A stretch of 64,000 nucleotides of DNA from an uncultured Verrucomicrobiae bacterium (GCA_963719495.1 CAVRCI010000014.1:1-64000); one strand, 5' to 3'. Numbered from the stretch's first letter, positions 28,421-37,634 are shown. The notes: generated by a model not told the origin, from the letters alone. Numbers and translations: made by a program.

Positions 28421-28568
28421 CGTCTGCAGCGTTCATGAACTGGCGGCAGCGGCCAAGGTCGGGCGTGAGCATATGGTTGCACCACCTGGGCGAGAAGCGA
28501 ACGGCGGTCACCGACCGCCGCCACGACCGAAGTCAGGTCAATTGTGAACGCTCGCAAGACTCGGTTCA

Positions 28569-28727
28569 GGGTGTGATTGCGAAAGTGGGCCGAGAGAGCG
28601 AGGGAACGCGCGGCGCGACGTTCCCTACCCGACTGGGTAGGGCTGGTCGCGCCGCGCCAGCCGTCTTCAATCTCCGCGGTGCCACTTTCTTCGTCTCGCC
28701 CCGGTGACCTTTTTCGCAATCACACCC
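28569..28727. mobile_element. 159-bp MITE, copy 1
   Basis: Perfect 16-bp TIR GGGTGTGATTGCGAAA/TTTCGCAATCACACCC. 9-bp direct repeat CTCGGTTCA at 28560-28568 and 28728-28736. Homologous copy at 54064. Confidence 0.9.
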
Positions 28728-29480
28728 CTCGGTTCACCCACTCTGAACCAACCATCAGCCTGCCCCCGCCGACGAATTAGCCCGGACCTCCGAGCTACCG
28801 GAAGCGAGCGTCGGCGCGTCGGATGCCGGGCGGTCGGTGCAATCTGCATCCGGCGTTACGACGCGGGCGCATGCCGCGAACCGGCGGTAATTCGGGGGGG
28901 GATTTCTTTGAGTAAGCGGGCATCGGATGCGAATTCTGAACCAATGAACGGACTGACACGTTCTACGACGGCGATGGAGTGAGCGCAGATCAGAACGCGA
29001 ACGCGGGAGTCGCGGCAGGGGCACAGGTTGTCGACGTCGATGCGGTTGTTGAAGCGGAAGCCGCGAGGAATTCTTTACCGCCCTCCGAGACTCGTCCTTT
29101 GAGCAACGGCGGCTCGTAGGTCGCTTCGGTCACGTGACCGCCTTCGTGGATGGCTCGCGCCTGCTTCCAAATCTGCCAACCGCCCATGCCCGTGAGGGAT
29201 TTTTCGGTCAGGACGATGGTCGGATCGGTCGCGGGCGGCATCCGGCGCATGATGCCCGCGCGACTCCATTGCGCAACGGGGTAGACTCGGCGAAGGTCCC
29301 GTTTCTTTTGCGCCTGCGCGCTCGCCGTGATGTGTGTCGGCTGTGCGACCAAGCCCACCGGATCGTCCGTGGTGTTGACGGGAGCGGTGACGTCACCCGC
29401 TGAATTTTCGCTCCCGCCCACGACCCCTTTCCGACCCCTTTCCGCGGGAAGTAGGAATTCGTTTTTGCATACTGACCCCC
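28705..29480. repeat. About 0.78-kb direct duplication, copy A (copy B at 31609-32397)
   Basis: Near-identical sequence with about a dozen substitutions counted by eye and small indels. Confidence 0.92.
28960..29241 (-). pseudogene. 5' fragment of a SWIM-zinc-finger (SNF2 helicase-type) gene, frameshifted
   Basis: MPPATDPTIVLTEKSLTGMGGWQIWKQAR...KEFLA, then a frameshift into FRFNNRIDVDNLCPCRDSRVRVLICAHSIAV (CxC...CxH). Truncated at a GTGTCAGTCCG motif. Confidence 0.7.
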
Positions 29481-29670
29481 CACTTCTGACCCCCACTTCC
29501 CTCTCCGAATCTGAGCCCGACAGTGAAAGTCGAAAATCGATGGAAAGTTGCGAGCGCCGAATGTGCCAATGCTATGGACCGACCCCTTCACGTGACCCCT
29601 TCCGCTAGCTAAGCGTCGTCAGAATTCATCGGCTGACCCCTACCGCTTTGAAGAATTCATCGGCTGACCC
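29420..29670 (-). repeat. Cluster of GGGGTC-core repeats (minus strand)
   Basis: Tandem (C/T)GACCCC units at about 29422, 29432, 29473, 29486, 29580, 29594, 29634 and 29665, including two copies of GAATTCATCGGCTGACCC. Confidence 0.85.
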
Positions 29671-29678
29671 GAATGGCA

Positions 29679-30032
29679 CTAACTTAAGGAGGATTTAGGA
29701 GGCGGCTCGCGTTTGGGAATCGGGGAGGGATCTGGGGTTCTCAAGATGAGTTTCTGGGTTATCTCGCGCATCTCGGTAACGTTCTTTTCCAGCTTTCGAT
29801 GGTTGGCGATGGCTAGTTTCATCCTTTGGGCTTTGAGGGGACTGAGCCCAACGGTGACGGTTTTTCCGGCAACTTTGCGGGTCCACCGCCAAGCCCGGGG
29901 AGGTTGGGGCATCACGCTTCCCTGACTCAATTCGGGGAAGCTTCCCAGCTCCGAGGCCAGGGTGCTGTAGCGTGCTTCGAGTCGACGGATTTCCCGGGCG
30001 GTGAGGTCGGATTTTTTAGCGGTTTTCGGCAT
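29679..30032 (-). CDS. Small basic IS-associated protein (DUF6788-like)
   Basis: SQGSV...WRWTRKVAGKTVT pattern. Lies inside the IS, divergent from the transposase, with its stop in the left TIR. Confidence 0.6.
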   Translation of the reverse strand: MPKTAKKSDLTAREIRRLEARYSTLASELGSFPELSQGSVMPQPPRAWRWTRKVAGKTVTVGLSPLKAQRMKLAIANHRKLEKNVTEMREITQKLILRTPDPSPIPKREPPPKSSLS

Positions 30033-30074
30033 AATTCACTGGCGGCTTCGATTAAGTATATATACTTGTATTGG

Positions 30075-31580
30075 ATGCGTTCTTTCAACCCGTTTTTCCC
30101 AAATTTTAGTTCGCGGCTTTTTGGACGACCGCCAGTCTCACCCCTGACGCAGGCCCTTGCCAAGCTCAGGCAGAGCGGTTCGCTCTCGGTGTTGGTCAAC
30201 GTCTTTGGCTCCTACATTTCACGGAAGTTACTTAGCTCAACGCCCAGCTGTGCTCACAGCCGCAAGCGCATTTTCTCGCTCGAACGTGTCTTCTGGAGCT
30301 TCCTGGATCAGGTGCAAACCCCGAACGGTTCCTGTCGCGAAGCCGTGTGCAAGGTCATGGCTTTGGTGAGCAGAAAATCCAAACCGTCTGGCACTACAGA
30401 GACCGAGGTCATGAGTGGCAATACCAGCGCTTATTGCCAGGCGCGAGCCAAGCTCCCGGTGGCGACACTGGAAGGAATCAACACCCATCTGGCCGTGCGC
30501 ATGGAAGCCAATATTCCCAGCGGCGCTCTCTGGCATGGTCGCCAGGTACGGCTCGTGGACGGCACGGGTGTCTCCATGCCCGACACCGAAGCCAATCAAG
30601 ATCGTTGGCCGCAGAGCAGCAGTCAGAAGCCGGGGTGTGGCTTTCCCGCAATCAATCTGGTTGGCGTTTTCTGCCTTCTCACCGGAGCTCTTCTCAAGGC
30701 GGATTGGGGCGATCGTCTCACCCATGAGACCCGGCTTTTTCGCAACCTTTGGAGCATTTTCAATCGTGGCGATCTCGTTCTCACCGACCGGGGATTTTGT
30801 TCCTTCGGGGCTATTGCCGGTCTGCTCTCCCTGGGCGTGGACTCGTTGATGCGCTTGCCCGAAAAACGGATCCGCAAGGCCATTGGTGCTCAGCTTCCCA
30901 AGTCGGCAAATTTCGATGTGAACATTGTCTGGAAGCGCCCCGCGCAGCGACCACGCGGGATGACGCCCGAGGAGTTCGCGCTCTGGCCCGCGGATATTCC
31001 AGTGCGCGTCGTGCGCTACACCATCGCCCAACCCGGCTTCCGCACCCAGACCGTGACCTTGGTGACCACCCTGCTGCTCTCCGAGACGGCCATTCCCGCC
31101 GATGATCTCGCCTCCCTCTACTTCCGCCGCTGGAGCGTCGAACTCCATTTTCGCGAGATCAAGATCGCTCTCAACATGGACGTCTTGCGCTGCAAATCCC
31201 CGGCCCTCATCGAGCGCGAACTCCTCATGCACTTCATCGCCTACAACCTCGTCCGCAGCGTCATGCAGAAAGCCGCCCTGATTCACGAACTCGACCTGGA
31301 TCGCGTCTCCTTCAAGGGCACTCTCGATACCGTCCGTCAGTTCGCCAACGCCACCAGTGGGGCCAACGCTAAACCCCGCACCATCTCCGCCATCCTCGAC
31401 GCCATGCTCTCTGCCATCGCCAGCGATCTCGTTCCGCTGCGCCCAGACCGATCCGAACCCAGAGTCAGAAAACGCCGCCCCAAAAACTATCGCCTCTTGA
31501 CCAAGCCCCGCCGCCAAATGGGACCGCTCCCTCACCGAAAATCCGGGGTCGAAAATCCTCCCAAATCCCCCTTATCTTAG
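30075..31580 (+). CDS. IS4-family DDE transposase
   Basis: VDGT, DRGF, YFRRWSVELHFREIK (YREK motif) and the RSEPRVRKRRPKNY tail. Confidence 0.95.
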   Translation: MRSFNPFFPNFSSRLFGRPPVSPLTQALAKLRQSGSLSVLVNVFGSYISRKLLSSTPSCAHSRKRIFSLERVFWSFLDQVQTPNGSCREAVCKVMALVSRKSKPSGTTETEVMSGNTSAYCQARAKLPVATLEGINTHLAVRMEANIPSGALWHGRQVRLVDGTGVSMPDTEANQDRWPQSSSQKPGCGFPAINLVGVFCLLTGALLKADWGDRLTHETRLFRNLWSIFNRGDLVLTDRGFCSFGAIAGLLSLGVDSLMRLPEKRIRKAIGAQLPKSANFDVNIVWKRPAQRPRGMTPEEFALWPADIPVRVVRYTIAQPGFRTQTVTLVTTLLLSETAIPADDLASLYFRRWSVELHFREIKIALNMDVLRCKSPALIERELLMHFIAYNLVRSVMQKAALIHELDLDRVSFKGTLDTVRQFANATSGANAKPRTISAILDAMLSAIASDLVPLRPDRSEPRVRKRRPKNYRLLTKPRRQMGPLPHRKSGVENPPKSPLS

Positions 31581-31608
31581 TGCCATTCTCGGCTGACCCC
31601 TACCGCTT

Positions 31609-32397
31609 TGACCTTTTTCGCAATCACACCCCTCGGTTCACCCACTCTGAACCAACCATCAGCCTGCCCCCGCCGACGAATTAGGCCGGACCTCCGAGCT
31701 ACCGGAAGCGAGCGTCGGCGCGTCGGATGCCGGGCGGTCGGGGCAATATGCATCCGGCGTTACGACGCGGGCGCATGCCGCGGACCGGCGGTAATTCGGG
31801 GGGGATTTCTTTGAGTAAGCGGGCATCGGATGCGAATTCTGAACCAATGAACGGACTGACACGTTCTACTGACACGTTCTACGACGGCGATGGAGTGAGC
31901 GCAGATCAGAACGCGAACGCGGGAGTCGCGGCAGGGGCACAGGTTGTCGACGTCGATGCGGTTGTTGAAGCGGAGGCCGCGAGGAATTCCTTACCGCCCT
32001 CCGAGACTCGTCCTTTGAGCAACGGCGGCTCGTAGGTCGCTTCGATCACGTGACCGCCTTCGTGGATGGCTCGCGCCTGCTTCCAAATCTGCCAACCGCC
32101 CATGCCCGTGAGGGATTTTTCGGTCAGGACGATGGTCGGATCGGTCGCGGGCGGCATCCGGCGCATTATGCCCGCGCGACTCCATTGCGCAACGGGGTAG
32201 ACTCGGCAAAGGTCCCGTTTCCTTGGCGCCTGCGCGCTCGCCGTGATGTGTGTCGGCTGTGCGACCAAGCCCACCGGATCGTCCGTGGTGTTGACGGGAG
32301 CGGTGACGTCACCCGCTGAATTTTCGCTCCCGCCCACGACCCCTTTCCGACCCCTTTCCGCGGGAAGTAGGAATTCGTTTTTGCACACTGACCCCCA
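31609..32397. repeat. About 0.79-kb direct duplication, copy B, starting with the terminal about 24 bp of the MITE
   Basis: Matches 28705-29480 and carries an extra 13-bp tandem duplication CTGACACGTTCTA at about 31856-31881. Confidence 0.92.
31876..32157 (-). pseudogene. Second copy of the frameshifted SWIM/SNF2 5' fragment
   Basis: Same translation and same frameshift as 28960-29241. Confidence 0.7.
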
Positions 32398-32399
32398 TT

Positions 32400-33201
32400 T
32401 CCCCAGCCCACTCAGCACTCCCATTAGCGAAATCGCACCGCCGACTCGCACCGCTTCAAGCGTCCGGTTGAACGTTTCCGGCCCCGAGACATCGACCGCA
32501 AGATCCACCCCGCGACCTTCGGTCCACGCGGTCACGGCCTGCGGCCAATCCGAATGGCTCCGCGTATCCCAAACGGCTTCCGCTCCCAACTCCCTCAGGC
32601 GCGGAATTTTTTCTGCGCTGCTCGTCGTCGCAACCACCCGCGCGCCAGCCATCCGCGCGAACTGGAGGCCAAACAGGGAGACTCCGCCCGAACCGATGAC
32701 CAGCACCGTGTCGCCCGGCAGGATCCGATTGCCTTCAAAAAGAGCAAACCATGCGGTTACTGCGGCGCAGGGCAGAGTCGCGGCTTCTTCATCGCTGAGG
32801 TGCTCGGGCACACGCACCAGCCCCTCGGCCGGAACCATGACATATTCAGCAAGCATCCCATCGACCCGACCGCCCCAAAGAGCGCTGGCTGATTTTTCCG
32901 TCGATAGCTCCCCATTGATCCAGCCGGGCATGAAGGCCGACGCGACGCGCTCGCCCACCTTGACACGGTCCACTCCAGGCCCGACGGCATCCACGAGGCC
33001 AACGCCATCGGATAAGGGAACGATCGGCGAGTAGTCCGATGGAGAAGAGTAAGTCCGACGCATGACCAGCAGGTCACGGTAGTTTAGTGAAGCCGCCAGC
33101 ATCCGCAGCCGGACCTGGCCGTGGGCCGGATCGGGAGGAGTTGCCTCACGAAGGATGAGGCCGGGTGTTTGATCGAAGGGAGTGAGTTGCCAAAATCGCA
33201 T
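32400..33201 (-). pseudogene. 3'-truncated MDR-family NAD(P)-dependent oxidoreductase
   Basis: AASLNYRD, PLSDGVG, AATLPCAAVTAW and GSGGVS. Family similarity ends at GVLSGL, where the ORF runs into GGGGTCAGTGTGCAAAAA and the duplicated segment (stop at 31906). Confidence 0.8.
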
Positions 33202-33276
33202 AGGGTATTTAGGTTGCCCCGAATTCTAGCACCGTCCCGCCACTGCTGTGGTGGTTCCATTTTTGTCACTGCATTG

Positions 33277-33682
33277 ATGACCAATAAAGAACATCTCCGA
33301 TTGCCCGTCACCGCCAACCACCGCTACCGGAGCGGGCGGTTGCCCCATCGAGGTGATCTTCGATGTGCTCGGAGGTCGCTGGAAGCCGATCCTACTCTTC
33401 GCCTTCTGGGAGGGCGCACAACGTTTCTCCGAACTGCGCCGTCAGATCCCACAGATCGGTTCTCGCATTCTTGCCCGCCAATTGAGGGAAATGGAACGCG
33501 ACGGCCTGATCAAGCGTTGCGAGGACCCCGATCGCCCGCGGACCTGCATCTACGCACTCACTCCGATGGCGGCTCCCCTGGGAGAAGTCCTTGTCCCATT
33601 GCGCGACTGGGGTGCACGCTATATTCGTCACCGCCTCCAAACTGCCGAGCTGCCCGCAGAACCGCGGAGGGTCAGCCGATGA
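33277..33682 (+). CDS. HxlR-family winged-helix regulator (start frameshifted, possibly a pseudogene)
   Basis: GCPIEVIFDVLGGRWK, RFSELRR, LARQLREMERDGLI and YALT. ATG 33277 is one base out of frame with the conserved part, and the stop is supplied by a repeat motif. Confidence 0.75.
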
Positions 33683-34095
33683 TTTCTGACACACTACTTA
33701 ATCGGCGGGAAATCGGGGTCGGGGAAATCGGGGTCGGTGTGCAAAAAGCAATTATCTCACCTCCGGGTCGGGGAAATCGGGGTCGCTGTGCAAAAAGCAA
33801 TTATCTCACCTCCGCACCGCTCCGTTCGAGCCATGCTGCGAACTCATTGCGGAAGGGGTCAGCCGACGGAAGGGGTCAGCGGAAGGGGTCAGCCGAGAAT
33901 GGCACTAACTTAAGCGCTGCTTTCAAAGTAAATTACCCTTCAATGCCATCCCAAAGCGTCCTTAAGTTAGTGCCATTCGGGTCAGCCGATGAATTCTGCG
34001 TCGAAGGGGTTATCGAAGGGGTCAGTCCGTCGAAGGGGTCTCGAAGGGGTCAGTCCGTGCATTCGAAGGGGTCAGTCCGTGCATTGGTTCGGAAA
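33669..34095 (+). repeat. Dense GGGGTC-core repeat array (plus strand)
   Basis: 49-bp tandem at 33716-33764 and 33765-33813, GGAAGGGGTCAGC x3 at 33851-33896, and CGAAGGGGT x5 at about 34002-34080. Confidence 0.9.
33897..33978. mobile_element. 82-bp miniature (MITE) of the IS4 element
   Basis: Perfect 18-bp TIR GAATGGCACTAACTTAAG, identical to the IS4 left end. 11-bp target duplication GGGTCAGCCGA at 33886-33896 and 33979-33989. Confidence 0.93.
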
Positions 34096-34185
34096 CTGTC
34101 CTGAGGCGAGCCGCGGGATGAGCATCGGAATGCACGGCGCGTCGGGTGACAGAGCTGCGAAGTGCCGCAACGATCCTTGCTTCTA

Positions 34186-34458
34186 ATGTCAAACCCCACC
34201 GCACCCGCCCGTTTTTTCAGCGACGACAGCTATTGGAATCAGCCCATTCCGGACGATGCGCCGATCGCGCCGGAGACGGCTCGCTGGGTTCGTTTTCTGG
34301 AGCAGTCCAGCCGCGAGCCCGGATTTTATCTGAGCCTGCGGCGCTGGACGCTGCCGATCTACGAGACAAAGCCCGACACGAAGTGGGTGGAGATCGGACG
34401 GCGCTTTCACGAGCCATTCGCCGAGGCTCAGCGGAAGGGGTCAGCCGATGAATTCTGA
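34186..34458 (+). pseudogene. 5' partial duplicate of the 36510 gene
   Basis: MSNPTAPARFFSDDSYWNQPIP...RRFHEPFAEAQ, then fused to GGAAGGGGTCAGCCGATGAATTCTGA. The upstream region is also duplicated (about 34065-34427 vs about 36390-36751). Confidence 0.88.
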
Positions 34459-34475: not shown

Positions 34476-34626
34476 GGAAGGGGTCAGCCGATGAATTCTG
34501 ATAGCAGGGTGAGAAAGCGAGTTCTGCGGAAGGCAATAACCAATAGATTGTGTGGTCCCAAATCAATGGATAGCTTCTGCCCAAAACAAAAGCGAATTGG
34601 TGAGAAATCATCGGCTGACCCCTTCC
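34476..34626. repeat. REPIN-like hairpin unit
   Basis: Perfect 19-bp inverted arms GGAAGGGGTCAGCCGATGA (34476-34494) and TCATCGGCTGACCCCTTCC (34608-34626) around an AT-rich spacer, with tandem partial arms outside on both sides. Confidence 0.85.
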
Positions 34627-36230: not shown

Positions 36231-36509
36231 GACGAGACTAATTCCATTGCGGCTTCGTGTAAATGGTGCGCCTCCCGACGGGCACCGCGCGTCGAATCGG
36301 CTGAGGACAGCCGATGGTTCAACGCCGCCAAACTGGCCGAAACGAATGCCCGGCGCCCGCCACGAGGTCATCGAAGGGGTCAGTCCGTCGAAGGGGTCAG
36401 TCCGTGCATTGGTTCAGAAACTGTCCTCAGGCGAGCTGGGGGCGAGCATCGGAATGCACGTCGCGTCGGGTGACAGAGCTCCAGAGTGTCGGAAAGCTTC
36501 CCGCCCTCG

Positions 36510-37634
36510 ATGTCAAATTCCACCCCACCCGCTCGGTTTTTCAGCGACGACAGTTATTGGAATCAGCCCATCCCGGACGACTCGCCCATCGCGCCGGAGA
36601 CGGATCGCTGGGTTCGGTTTTTGGAGCAGTCCAGTCGCGAGCCCGGATTTTATTTGAGTCTGCGCCGTTGGACGCTGCCGATCTACGAGACGAAGCCCGA
36701 CACGAAGTGGGTCACGATTAAGCGGCGCTTTCACGAGCCGTTCGCCGAGGCGCAGTATTTGTATCGCCATTCCAAGTATCTGCTGGAGGCTCGCCCGGAT
36801 CACCCGGTTGGGTTTGGCGAGGGCTTCGGTCCGACCATTCCGATGCCGGAGGACGCGGTGCCGGACGCGATGACCGATGGCCACCTCAGTATCATCGACC
36901 GCGAGCGGAACAAGGTGTGGGATCTGTGGGGTGCACGGCGCAACGACGACGGCACGTGGTCGACGTGGTCGGGGATCACCTACCCGCTGGACGGGCCGGG
37001 GACGTTTGATCCGAAGCGGTTTGCGATTTCGAACGGCGAGACCATTCACCTCTACGGTCCCTGCCGGGCATCGGGGACGCCGAGCATCGCGGGCATCACC
37101 CGCTACGACGAAGTCCTGAGCGGGCGGATCGAGCACAAGCTGTCCTTTGCCACGCGCTTCGCGGGCCTGCTGGCGCACTGCTTCCCCGCGACCTGGACGG
37201 ACGGTGGCATCCTGGGCGGCATCCCGGAGGGGATCACGATGCAACTCGATCCGACGCTGGATCTTTCGACGCTGGGGCTGAACGACGGCGCGCGGGTGAT
37301 CGCGACGGCGATGCAGGAATATGGCGCGGTGCTCATCGACGTCTGTCTTGGCTCCACCATCGGCGCCGAGAACCTCAACGGACACGCGAGCAAATCTTGG
37401 GACGGCATTCTGGACGAACGCGATCTCAACGCGATTCCGTTCGAGCATTTCCGCTTCATTCAGCCCGCGACCATCGTCGAAAAGGGCCTGATTCCGGCGG
37501 TGCATCCGACGACATTCCAGACCTACCACGAACTCATGCAACTCCACGACGAGGTCGAAACGGAGCAGGGGACGTTCGTCGGGTGGCCGAAGGATTGGTA
37601 TCAGCGTCACGCGGCGAAATACGAGCCCGCGTAG
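36510..37634 (+). CDS. Hypothetical protein of unknown function
   Basis: Long clean ORF with SYWNQPI, DGHLSIID...WDLW, RASG, IEHKL and MQEYGAVLID. No family assigned. Confidence 0.75.
   Translation: MSNSTPPARFFSDDSYWNQPIPDDSPIAPETDRWVRFLEQSSREPGFYLSLRRWTLPIYETKPDTKWVTIKRRFHEPFAEAQYLYRHSKYLLEARPDHPVGFGEGFGPTIPMPEDAVPDAMTDGHLSIIDRERNKVWDLWGARRNDDGTWSTWSGITYPLDGPGTFDPKRFAISNGETIHLYGPCRASGTPSIAGITRYDEVLSGRIEHKLSFATRFAGLLAHCFPATWTDGGILGGIPEGITMQLDPTLDLSTLGLNDGARVIATAMQEYGAVLIDVCLGSTIGAENLNGHASKSWDGILDERDLNAIPFEHFRFIQPATIVEKGLIPAVHPTTFQTYHELMQLHDEVETEQGTFVGWPKDWYQRHAAKYEPA

Follow-up and report, generated by a model that had tools for sequence, protein, structure and literature searches.

Insertion of an IS4-family element and an 82-bp miniature at one 11-bp site of a Verrucomicrobiae repeat, and a probable palindromic target preference of the element's clade

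Introduction

In a 64,000-nucleotide stretch of DNA from an uncultured Verrucomicrobiae bacterium (GCA_963719495.1, CAVRCI010000014.1:1-64000), referred to here as the window, a complete insertion sequence (IS) of 1918 bp, designated IS-A, and an 82-bp transposable element of the miniature inverted-repeat type (MITE), designated MITE-A, interrupt a local repeat at the identical 11-bp site. The window corresponds to positions 1-64000 of contig C14 in a genome of 4.54 Mb and 16 contigs (G000). The locus raises the question of how two elements of such different size came to occupy the same site. A preliminary description had proposed a sequence-specific IS4 element that uses the repeat family as its landing site, with passive copying of the miniature along with the repeat as an alternative. 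According to our analysis, the identical-site insertions very probably result from a preference of the IS clade, whose ends would be joined 11 bp apart across the palindromic sequence GGGWCWGWCCC (W, A or T).

Organization of the locus

The terminal inverted repeats of IS-A are imperfect, with 28 matches among the first 32 positions, and identical over the first 12 (GAATGGCACTAA). This 12-mer was found four times in the window, at 29671(+), 31588(-), 33897(+) and 33978(-), compared to a chance expectation of approximately 0.05, and four occurrences were reached in none of 100 shuffles. The matches form two inverted pairs, the first of which delimits IS-A with TCGGCTGACCC on both flanks, while the second delimits MITE-A with GGGTCAGCCGA on both flanks. 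GGGTCAGCCGA is the exact reverse complement of TCGGCTGACCC and occurs ten times in the window (approximately 0.09 expected). The features of the two insertions are as follows.

29660..29670, no strand: left copy of the IS-A target duplication (TCGGCTGACCC), identical to 31589-31599
29671..31588, + strand: IS-A, IS4-family insertion sequence of 1918 bp with terminal inverted repeats, target duplication and three copies in the genome
29679..30032, - strand: DUF6788 open reading frame (ORF) of 117 aa, divergent from the transposase gene, assigned by Pfam match
30075..31580, + strand: transposase gene, 501 aa from the first ATG, with IS4 profile match, DDE and YREK residues
31589..31599, no strand: right copy of the IS-A target duplication (TCGGCTGACCC), identical to the left copy
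33886..33896, no strand: left copy of the MITE-A target duplication (GGGTCAGCCGA), identical to the right copy
33897..33978, no strand: MITE-A, 82-bp non-coding miniature, recognized by its ends, duplication and hairpin fold
33979..33989, no strand: right copy of the MITE-A target duplication (GGGTCAGCCGA), identical to the left copy
29629..29639, - strand: unoccupied repeat arm (GGGTCAGCCGA then TGAATTC), 20 bp from the occupied arm, a paralogous empty site
34438-34448 and 34481-34491, + strand: two unoccupied repeat arms (GGGTCAGCCGA then TGAATTC), paralogous empty sites

At both insertions the 11-mer forms the first part of the arm of the local repeat GGGGTCAGCCGATGAATTC and is directly followed by TGAATTC, which places IS-A and MITE-A in the same register of this repeat. 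Since the three uninterrupted arms listed above represent paralogous empty sites, they fix the element boundaries and identify the 11-mers as target duplications that lie outside the elements. The 11-mer was also present in variant contexts at 33669, 33856 and 34611(-). Pattern searches therefore bore out the shared terminal inverted repeat, the reverse-complementary duplications and the common register of the preliminary description, and the interval from 29660 to 33989 that it had assigned to the pair spans the outer duplications exactly. An orthologous empty site was sought in the DNA of 20 relatives with window positions 32400-34400, where the congeners proved too divergent or rearranged, and three metagenome runs matched small shares of the locus words (0.12, 0.07 and 0.00).

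A common target motif at GAATGGC-type ends

Ends of the GAATGGC type are shared in this genome by IS-A, by its sisters IS-B (1555 bp) and IS-C (1609 bp) and by several MITEs, including MITE-B (~265 bp, about 10 copies) and further types of 280 and 375 bp. For the analysis of target sites, flanks were defined as the 11 bases abutting such ends, read towards the element, and three sets of flanks were compared with regard to GGG at positions 1-3 or CCC at positions 9-11.

This genome: 49 ends, 42 with GGG or CCC, background 4.5%
Relatives (G007, G009, G014, G017 and others): 48 ends, 31 with GGG or CCC, background 3.9%
Distant genomes (other phyla): 109 ends, 81 with GGG or CCC, background 2.9%

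All three sets yielded one palindromic consensus, GGGWCWGWCCC; the target duplications of other copies are thus not unrelated, in agreement with the specificity that had been proposed. Position by position, the 109 ends from distant genomes gave G76 G76 G71 W92 C85 W83 G86 W90 C67 C64 C72. Among the 20 elements of this genome whose ends could be paired, nine exhibited perfect 11/11 duplications and seven duplications of 9-10/11, while the remaining four matched at 8/11, 6/11, 5/11 and 5/11; of the 21 ends left unpaired, several seem to be fortuitous hits of the loose pattern. Perfect duplications were observed at repeat sites (GGGTCAGTCCG and GGGTCAGCCGA) as well as outside the repeat (GGGACGGTCAT, CACGCTGACCC, AGAACGGACCC and CCGTCAGCCCC), and two more at non-repeat sites were seen as matching flanks (GGGTAAGTGGC and GGCTCCGACTC). 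The end pattern was present in seven of the 20 relatives (G007, 20 matches; G014, 11; G009, 10; G005 and G017, 3 each; G001 and G018, 1 each). With regard to the distant genomes, 32 of the 80 loci kept contained GAATGGC-type inverted repeats with a flanking duplication, which was 11 bp long in 29 of them, and GGG or CCC occurred in 20 of these 29 compared to a background of 3% (P about 3e-24). Full palindromic duplications of the GGGWCWGWCCC form included GGGAGTGTCCC, GGGGCATTCCC and GGGCATCGCCC, and GGGTCAGACCC is of the perfect-palindrome type.

IS4-family transposases such as those of Tn5 and Tn10 act as dimers and join both 3' ends to staggered target positions. Following this paradigm, a transposase dimer would excise the element and capture the target, its two-fold symmetry reading a GGGWC half-site at each staggered cut; a symmetric reading with one half-site per subunit would produce a consensus that is palindromic and matches the duplicated 11 bp in position. 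By the same reasoning a single good half-site (GGGTCAG) would suffice, and the host repeat GGGGTCAGTCCGTKCATTGGTTCAGAA with its variant GGGGTCAGCCGATGAATTC, which offers many near-consensus sites, would be the main landing pad in this genome. The miniature is predicted to retain just the transposase-binding ends, in which case the IS-A transposase would move it in trans. Each insertion would yield two fresh targets abutting the element and could thereby generate arrays, for example the IS-A, MITE-B and IS-B array on contig C2.

The motif would be a survivorship artefact if insertion were random and copies survived in harmless intergenic repeats alone. Most occupied sites in this genome are located in intergenic repeat clusters, and the case is built on existing copies rather than de novo insertions, both of which fit such a filter. 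We nevertheless regard random insertion as highly improbable: the register within the 11-mer is exactly the same from one insertion to the next, the consensus is palindromic and coincident with the duplicated bases, the same consensus was recovered from genomes of other phyla that lack the repeat, and perfect duplications at non-repeat sites (GGGACGGTCAT and GGGTAAGTGGC) retain the motif.

The host repeat as a landing site

The host repeat GGGGTCAGTCCGTKCATTGGTTCAGAA, of which GGGGTCAGCCGATGAATTC is the local variant, is genus-specific. Its main form (GGGTCAGTCCGTKCATTGG, one mismatch allowed) was counted 63 times in this genome, 27 times in G003, 6 times in G004 and 4 times in G001, and the other genera searched yielded none. 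The congeners G003 and G004 carry the repeat with zero matches to the end pattern, while G007, G009, G014 and G017 carry the element ends with zero repeats. This difference in distribution among the relatives indicates that the repeat and the IS are separate entities and that the specificity of the IS is for the motif and not for the repeat. GGGTCAGTCCG fits the consensus at 10 of 11 positions, and an element end abuts 18 of the 79 GGGTCAGTCCG sites and 6 of the 16 GGGTCAGCCGA sites; what makes the repeat a landing pad is thus the motif within it. The IS-A-type elements (three IS copies and one miniature) are all located in GGGTCAG(C/T)C-type repeat arms. GAATGGC-ended elements in general do not follow the type 1 pattern of targeting repetitive extragenic palindromic (REP) sequences, in which all or nearly all copies lie in the repeat at the same position. 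Of the earlier proposal, the sequence specificity is upheld, while the repeat as such has to be replaced by a short palindromic motif, as non-repeat sites are also used.

The opposite relationship, with the repeat as a product of the IS that consists of old duplications and IS-end stubs, would mean that the IS builds its own landing pads. A segment of the repeat, GTGCATTGGTTCAG, resembles by eye the right end of the IS plus the duplication (GTGCCATTC then GGGTCAG), the local arm GGGTCAGCCGA-TGAAT resembles a duplication followed by the first bases of the inverted repeat, and IS-end stubs are present between duplicated 11-mers at the Pontiella locus L026. Such an origin nonetheless strikes us as very hard to credit, given that the congeners with 27 (G003) and 6 (G004) repeats have no IS-end matches, that the repeat was not found in other genera carrying the IS ends, and that its two halves are not identical 11-mers, unlike a duplication scar. 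Moreover, IS4-family excision would be expected from the textbook Tn5/Tn10 mechanism to leave no element bases. A local repeat that happens to offer the motif to the IS clade is the reading preferred here.

At its 5' junction the host repeat was observed to stutter, in that a locus-specific prefix (tcgaag, gaggag, caaaag and others) and a variable-length start of the repeat are arranged in tandem before the full copy. This was seen in the window at 34000-34095, at 36360-36420 and at 28953-28965 compared to 31856-31881, as well as at C11:37440-37650, C1:166250-166420 and C13:501250-501340, and a similar stutter adjoins an IS at Pontiella locus L026 (2070-2110). The periods of 11, 13, 17, 23 and 30 led us to reject an interpretation as 11-bp insertion or excision footprints. 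Two segments that flank IS-A on either side as direct copies of each other bear on the timing of this process.

28705..29480, no strand: segment D1, ~780 bp, direct copy of D2, 96.7% identical
31609..32396, no strand: segment D2, direct copy of D1, with one extra 13-nt junction repeat unit compared to D1

As D1 and D2 differ by exactly one 13-nt stutter unit, the stutter process is later than the D1/D2 duplication.

Stacked elements, proposed recombination and independence of copies

Because each insertion duplicates its target, elements stack exactly 11 bp apart. This spacing was found in seven of the eight facing end pairs within 40 bp, three in this genome and four in other genomes. The clearest array (C2:753488-757260) consists of IS-A, GGGTCAGTCCG, MITE-B, CGGACTGACCC, IS-B and CGGACTGACCC, and at Pontiella locus L026, where short IS-end stubs separate repeated 11-mers, the very same 11-mer was used. 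At C2:755418-755683 and at loci L011 and L026, the flanks are mutually reverse-complementary instead of direct (GGGTCAGTCCG ... CGGACTGACCC), as would be expected from recombination between copies in oppositely oriented 11-mers.

IS-A is represented by three genome copies with identities of 100%, 100% and 99.58%, all in the same orientation relative to the motif, two of which are not independent, while IS-B occurs in both orientations. The window copy and the copy on C13 share a 100% identical tract that corresponds to window positions 28762-31588 (909 bp of left flank plus the IS), and 36 positions differ over the next 1.4 kb leftwards, indicating that the C13 copy derives from duplication or gene conversion and not from a second insertion. 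In transposase orientation, the IS-A flanks are TCGGCTGACCC / CGGACTGACCC on C13 and CGGACTGACCC / TCGACTGACCC on C2. If two copies had undergone reciprocal exchange, both pairs of flanks would be accounted for with one mismatch left, and the same recombination explanation has been given for ISRm22 (Tobes and Pareja, PMC1525189).

Several points weigh against the proposed target preference or restrict its range. It is not absolute, GGG/CCC being missing at 7 of 49, 17 of 48 and 28 of 109 ends in the three sets, respectively. The counted ends are not independent, as copies share ancestry and repeat copies share flanks, which makes the binomial P values (1e-32 to 1e-99) look stronger than they are; more weight lies with the fact that three sets of different lineage agree. 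The enrichment might be raised further by retention bias, with insertions tolerated in intergenic repeats. C14 and C13 carry IS-A copies that amount to one event instead of two, and the non-matching flanks (8/11 and 9/11) at two of the three IS-A copies require IS-IS recombination as an extra assumption. IS4 itself is without the motif in the three copies examined, and two ISNpu3-like copies from Nostocales fit it weakly, which argues that the preference is not family-wide. It was also read from the sequences of existing insertions. On balance, the target preference likely belongs to the IS clade.

Family assignment of IS-A

The assignment to the IS4 family made in the preliminary description was corroborated by the 198.5 bits (cut-off 115) that the transposase scored on NF033592, the IS4 model of NCBIfam, and by the presence of both the DDE and the YREK residues. 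A match to Pfam DDE_Tnp_1 (83.5 bits) covered residues 236-475 of the longer ORF, and the DDE triad, located by motif and Pfam match, consists of D161, D237 and E356. The family is defined by D(60-110)D(100-150)E plus Y(2)R(3)E(6)K (PMC2266710); the corresponding spacings in the IS-A transposase, 76 and 119, fall within these limits, and the second signature is formed by Y349, R352, E356 and K363 in YFRRWSVELHFREIK (residues 349-363). The transposase is encoded in one open frame (30075-31580) free of frameshifts. Both ORFs of IS-A terminate within the inverted repeats, with the transposase stop TAG in the right and the DUF6788 stop codon in the left repeat. In a tblastn search of plasmids, the IS-A transposase reached annotated IS4, ISPa1635 and IS1675 transposases.

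Members of the IS4 subgroup have ends of the form -AATR--------WTW----, direct repeats of 10-13 bp, a typical size of 1400-1650 bp and a single ORF (De Palmenaer et al. 2008, Table 1, PMC2266710). The IS-A end GAATGGCACTAACTTAAGG carries AATG at positions 2-5 and TTA at positions 14-16, and the 11-bp duplication lies within the subgroup range. With 1918 bp and a second divergent ORF, IS-A is outside the typical size, which is not a strict limit, while IS-B and IS-C are within it. IS-A is therefore an IS4-family, IS4-subgroup insertion sequence. The closest relative of its transposase (67% identity) was found in a Chthoniobacterales metagenome-assembled genome, and relatives are spread over many phyla. 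The C2 copy of IS-A (C2:753488-755406) differs by seven substitutions and one extra C at IS position 1787, which changes the last ~40 transposase residues, and it may be defective.

The 82-bp miniature

MITE-A is 82 bp long, has no ORF and occurs as a single copy in the genome. Both of its ends are identical to the left end of IS-A over 18 bases, and the similarity to the IS-A ends extends to ~32 bases at one of them. It folds as a long hairpin (-19.9 kcal/mol, z-score -8.5). Small size, lack of coding capacity, IS-A-like inverted repeats and a duplication of the same length (11 bp) are all features of MITEs, while the multiple dispersed copies typical of these elements are represented by one copy only. 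Other miniatures with related ends include multi-copy types (MITE-B and the 280-bp type), and an IS-C-type miniature of 92 bp lies at C2:25391-25482.

The earlier suggestion that the miniature had been passively copied along with the repeat was not supported, given its single copy, its 11/11 duplication and the empty repeat copies alongside. In full, this alternative regards MITE-A as a non-transposed deletion remnant of an IS in the repeat that was carried along as the repeat was copied. The IS-like ~32 bases at one end make an internal deletion from an IS-A-like element plausible; on the other hand, a single genomic copy means that nothing was copied along, the duplication is perfect (11/11), and the left-end variant (CTTAAG) is present at each end, whereas the left and right ends of the IS differ. 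We consider this explanation unlikely. The single copy is compatible with a deletion in place as well as with one that preceded a transposition.

The DUF6788 reading frame

The 117-aa ORF of IS-A matched Pfam DUF6788 with 41.3 bits (cut-off 27.2). A second divergent ORF is unusual for the IS4 subgroup, yet it was kept in position, strand and sequence (mean column identity 49%) in eight related ~1.9-kb elements of other genomes. Relatives of 1.55 kb without DUF6788 exhibit the same target motif, from which it follows that DUF6788 is not needed for target choice. A DUF6788-like ORF (26.5 bits, just below the cut-off of 27.2) is also located upstream of the transposase in a 1750-bp ISKra4-family IS, so that DUF6788 is carried by two IS families of this genome that are unrelated to each other. 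This second IS, at C14:180775-182524 with five more copies on C1, C2, C3, C10 and C13, matched NF033572 with 237.6 bits (cut-off 205) and has ends GGGTGCAGGACAAAA and duplications of 8-9 bp.

An AlphaFold2 model of the DUF6788 protein (pLDDT 82.8) consists of a helix, three strands and a long helix. Foldseek against PDB returned no match at E <= 0.001 (best 0.16), and VIA-align wide returned generic helical-hairpin matches alone (Z <= 6.2); these fold searches were uninformative, and no function can be read from the model. No mention of DUF6788 or PF20586 was found in the literature searched. The protein could regulate or assist transposition. Its conservation in nine elements from at least four phyla allows the tentative and rather doubtful suggestion that it might be an unrecognized portable transposition cofactor of a ~1.9-kb IS4 branch.

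Surrounding block and other observations

A 5.6-kb block (28483-34104) is missing in the congener G004, where the equivalent of window position 28482 directly abuts that of 34105. The block comprises D1, IS-A, D2, a zinc-type alcohol dehydrogenase gene, an HxlR-family regulator gene, repeat clusters and the miniature, and on the right it ends in a complete host-repeat copy. The alcohol dehydrogenase ORF (31906-33201, - strand) encodes 431 aa, with Pfam domains that stop at residue 292 and ~140 final codons that extend into D2; the homologous frame in D1 (28990-29496) is a stand-alone ORF of 168 aa with no family match. Positions 34105-34431 and 36430-36755 are paralogous gene-region starts, each preceded by the host repeat, and the G004 orthologue is 98.5% identical to the former and about 90% identical to the latter. 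Elsewhere in the genome, at C2:27024-175123, a conserved motif (about 25 nt or longer) that includes GGGTTGGCTGCAGCGCC is repeated 186 times on the same strand with a median spacing of 623 bp over 148 kb, an arrangement that looks like a very large cassette array.

Comparison with known systems

Target-specific insertion is known transposon behaviour and not new, with precedents in IS231A, ISNpu3/Nezha and the REP-targeting ISs, and De Palmenaer et al. mention "spectacular apparent insertion specificity" for some IS4-subgroup elements (PMC2266710). A literature search for the 11-mers and end sequences returned chance matches alone, in primer lists of unrelated papers; the GGG..CCC rule may already have been depicted for IS4-subgroup members.

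Within the IS4 subgroup, IS4 of Escherichia coli is the type element; three of four loci were used for comparison, L140 being dropped. Its transposase is 25% identical to that of IS-A over 90% of the length (E 1e-16 to 1e-17), and both share the end pattern xAATGxC...TTAAG (TAATGCCGATCAGTTAAG). In contrast to IS-A, IS4 has 1426 bp and one ORF, and its duplications of 13, 12 and 12 bp are without GGG..CCC. ISNpu3 and the MITE Nezha represent an IS and miniature pair in Nostocales (Zhou et al. 2008, as described in Delihas 2011, PMC3184786). Copies on Nostocales plasmids, recorded as 'IS4 family transposase' and inferred by us to be ISNpu3, show 38-41% identity to the IS-A transposase, and the first 12 bases of their ends GAATGGCACTAAGAAAAGC are those of IS-A. 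Duplications of 11 bp were present at two of three loci, with no matching flanks at L143. Unlike IS-A, these copies are about 1.6-1.7 kb long without the DUF6788 ORF, and their duplications (GTATCATAACC and GGATGTCATAG) fit GGGWCWGWCCC weakly.

REP-targeting ISs (IS1397, ISKpn1, ISPpu9/10, ISPa11, ISPsy8 and ISRm22; Tobes and Pareja 2006, PMC1525189) likewise insert at a fixed position of an interspersed repeat, and ISRm22 is an IS4-family member. Their imperfect direct repeats were ascribed to inter-copy recombination, an explanation that we also propose for the IS-A copies on C13 and C2. All or nearly all of their copies are located in the repeat, whereas the IS-A clade is characterized by an 11-bp motif, by many insertions outside the repeat and by occurrence of the same motif in repeat-free genomes.

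IS10/Tn10 and IS50/Tn5 have the symmetric hot-spot consensus sequences GCTNAGC and AGNTYWRANCT, respectively, and 9-bp duplications (PMC2577343, Table 1). They belong to the same family as IS-A and similarly have a palindromic consensus centred on the duplicated bases, as a two-fold symmetric transpososome predicts, but differ in the length of the duplication, 9 instead of 11 bp, and in the motif. IS231A, of the IS231 subgroup of the IS4 family, combines an 11-bp duplication with the target GGGNNNNNCCC (PMC2577343, Table 1, citing Hallet 1994) and thus shares with the IS-A clade the duplication length, a palindromic target and the same outer triplets. It differs from IS-A in subgroup and in its ends, CAT... 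(PMC2266710, Table 1). The IS231A-type target of 11 bp that begins with GGG and ends with CCC is present in the IS-A clade at the level of the consensus, single sites often having half of it, and the inner positions are fixed in addition (C5, G7 and W at 4, 6 and 8).

The present findings leave the understanding of IS4-family transposition and target choice unchanged. With the 11-bp duplication on GGGWCWGWCCC, a branch of the IS4 subgroup that is widespread and little described receives a target rule that is clean and can be checked. The rule aids the annotation of these elements and their many miniatures, and it explains both their head-to-tail pile-up exactly 11 bp apart and the role of a genus-specific repeat as an IS trap and a seed of rearrangement.

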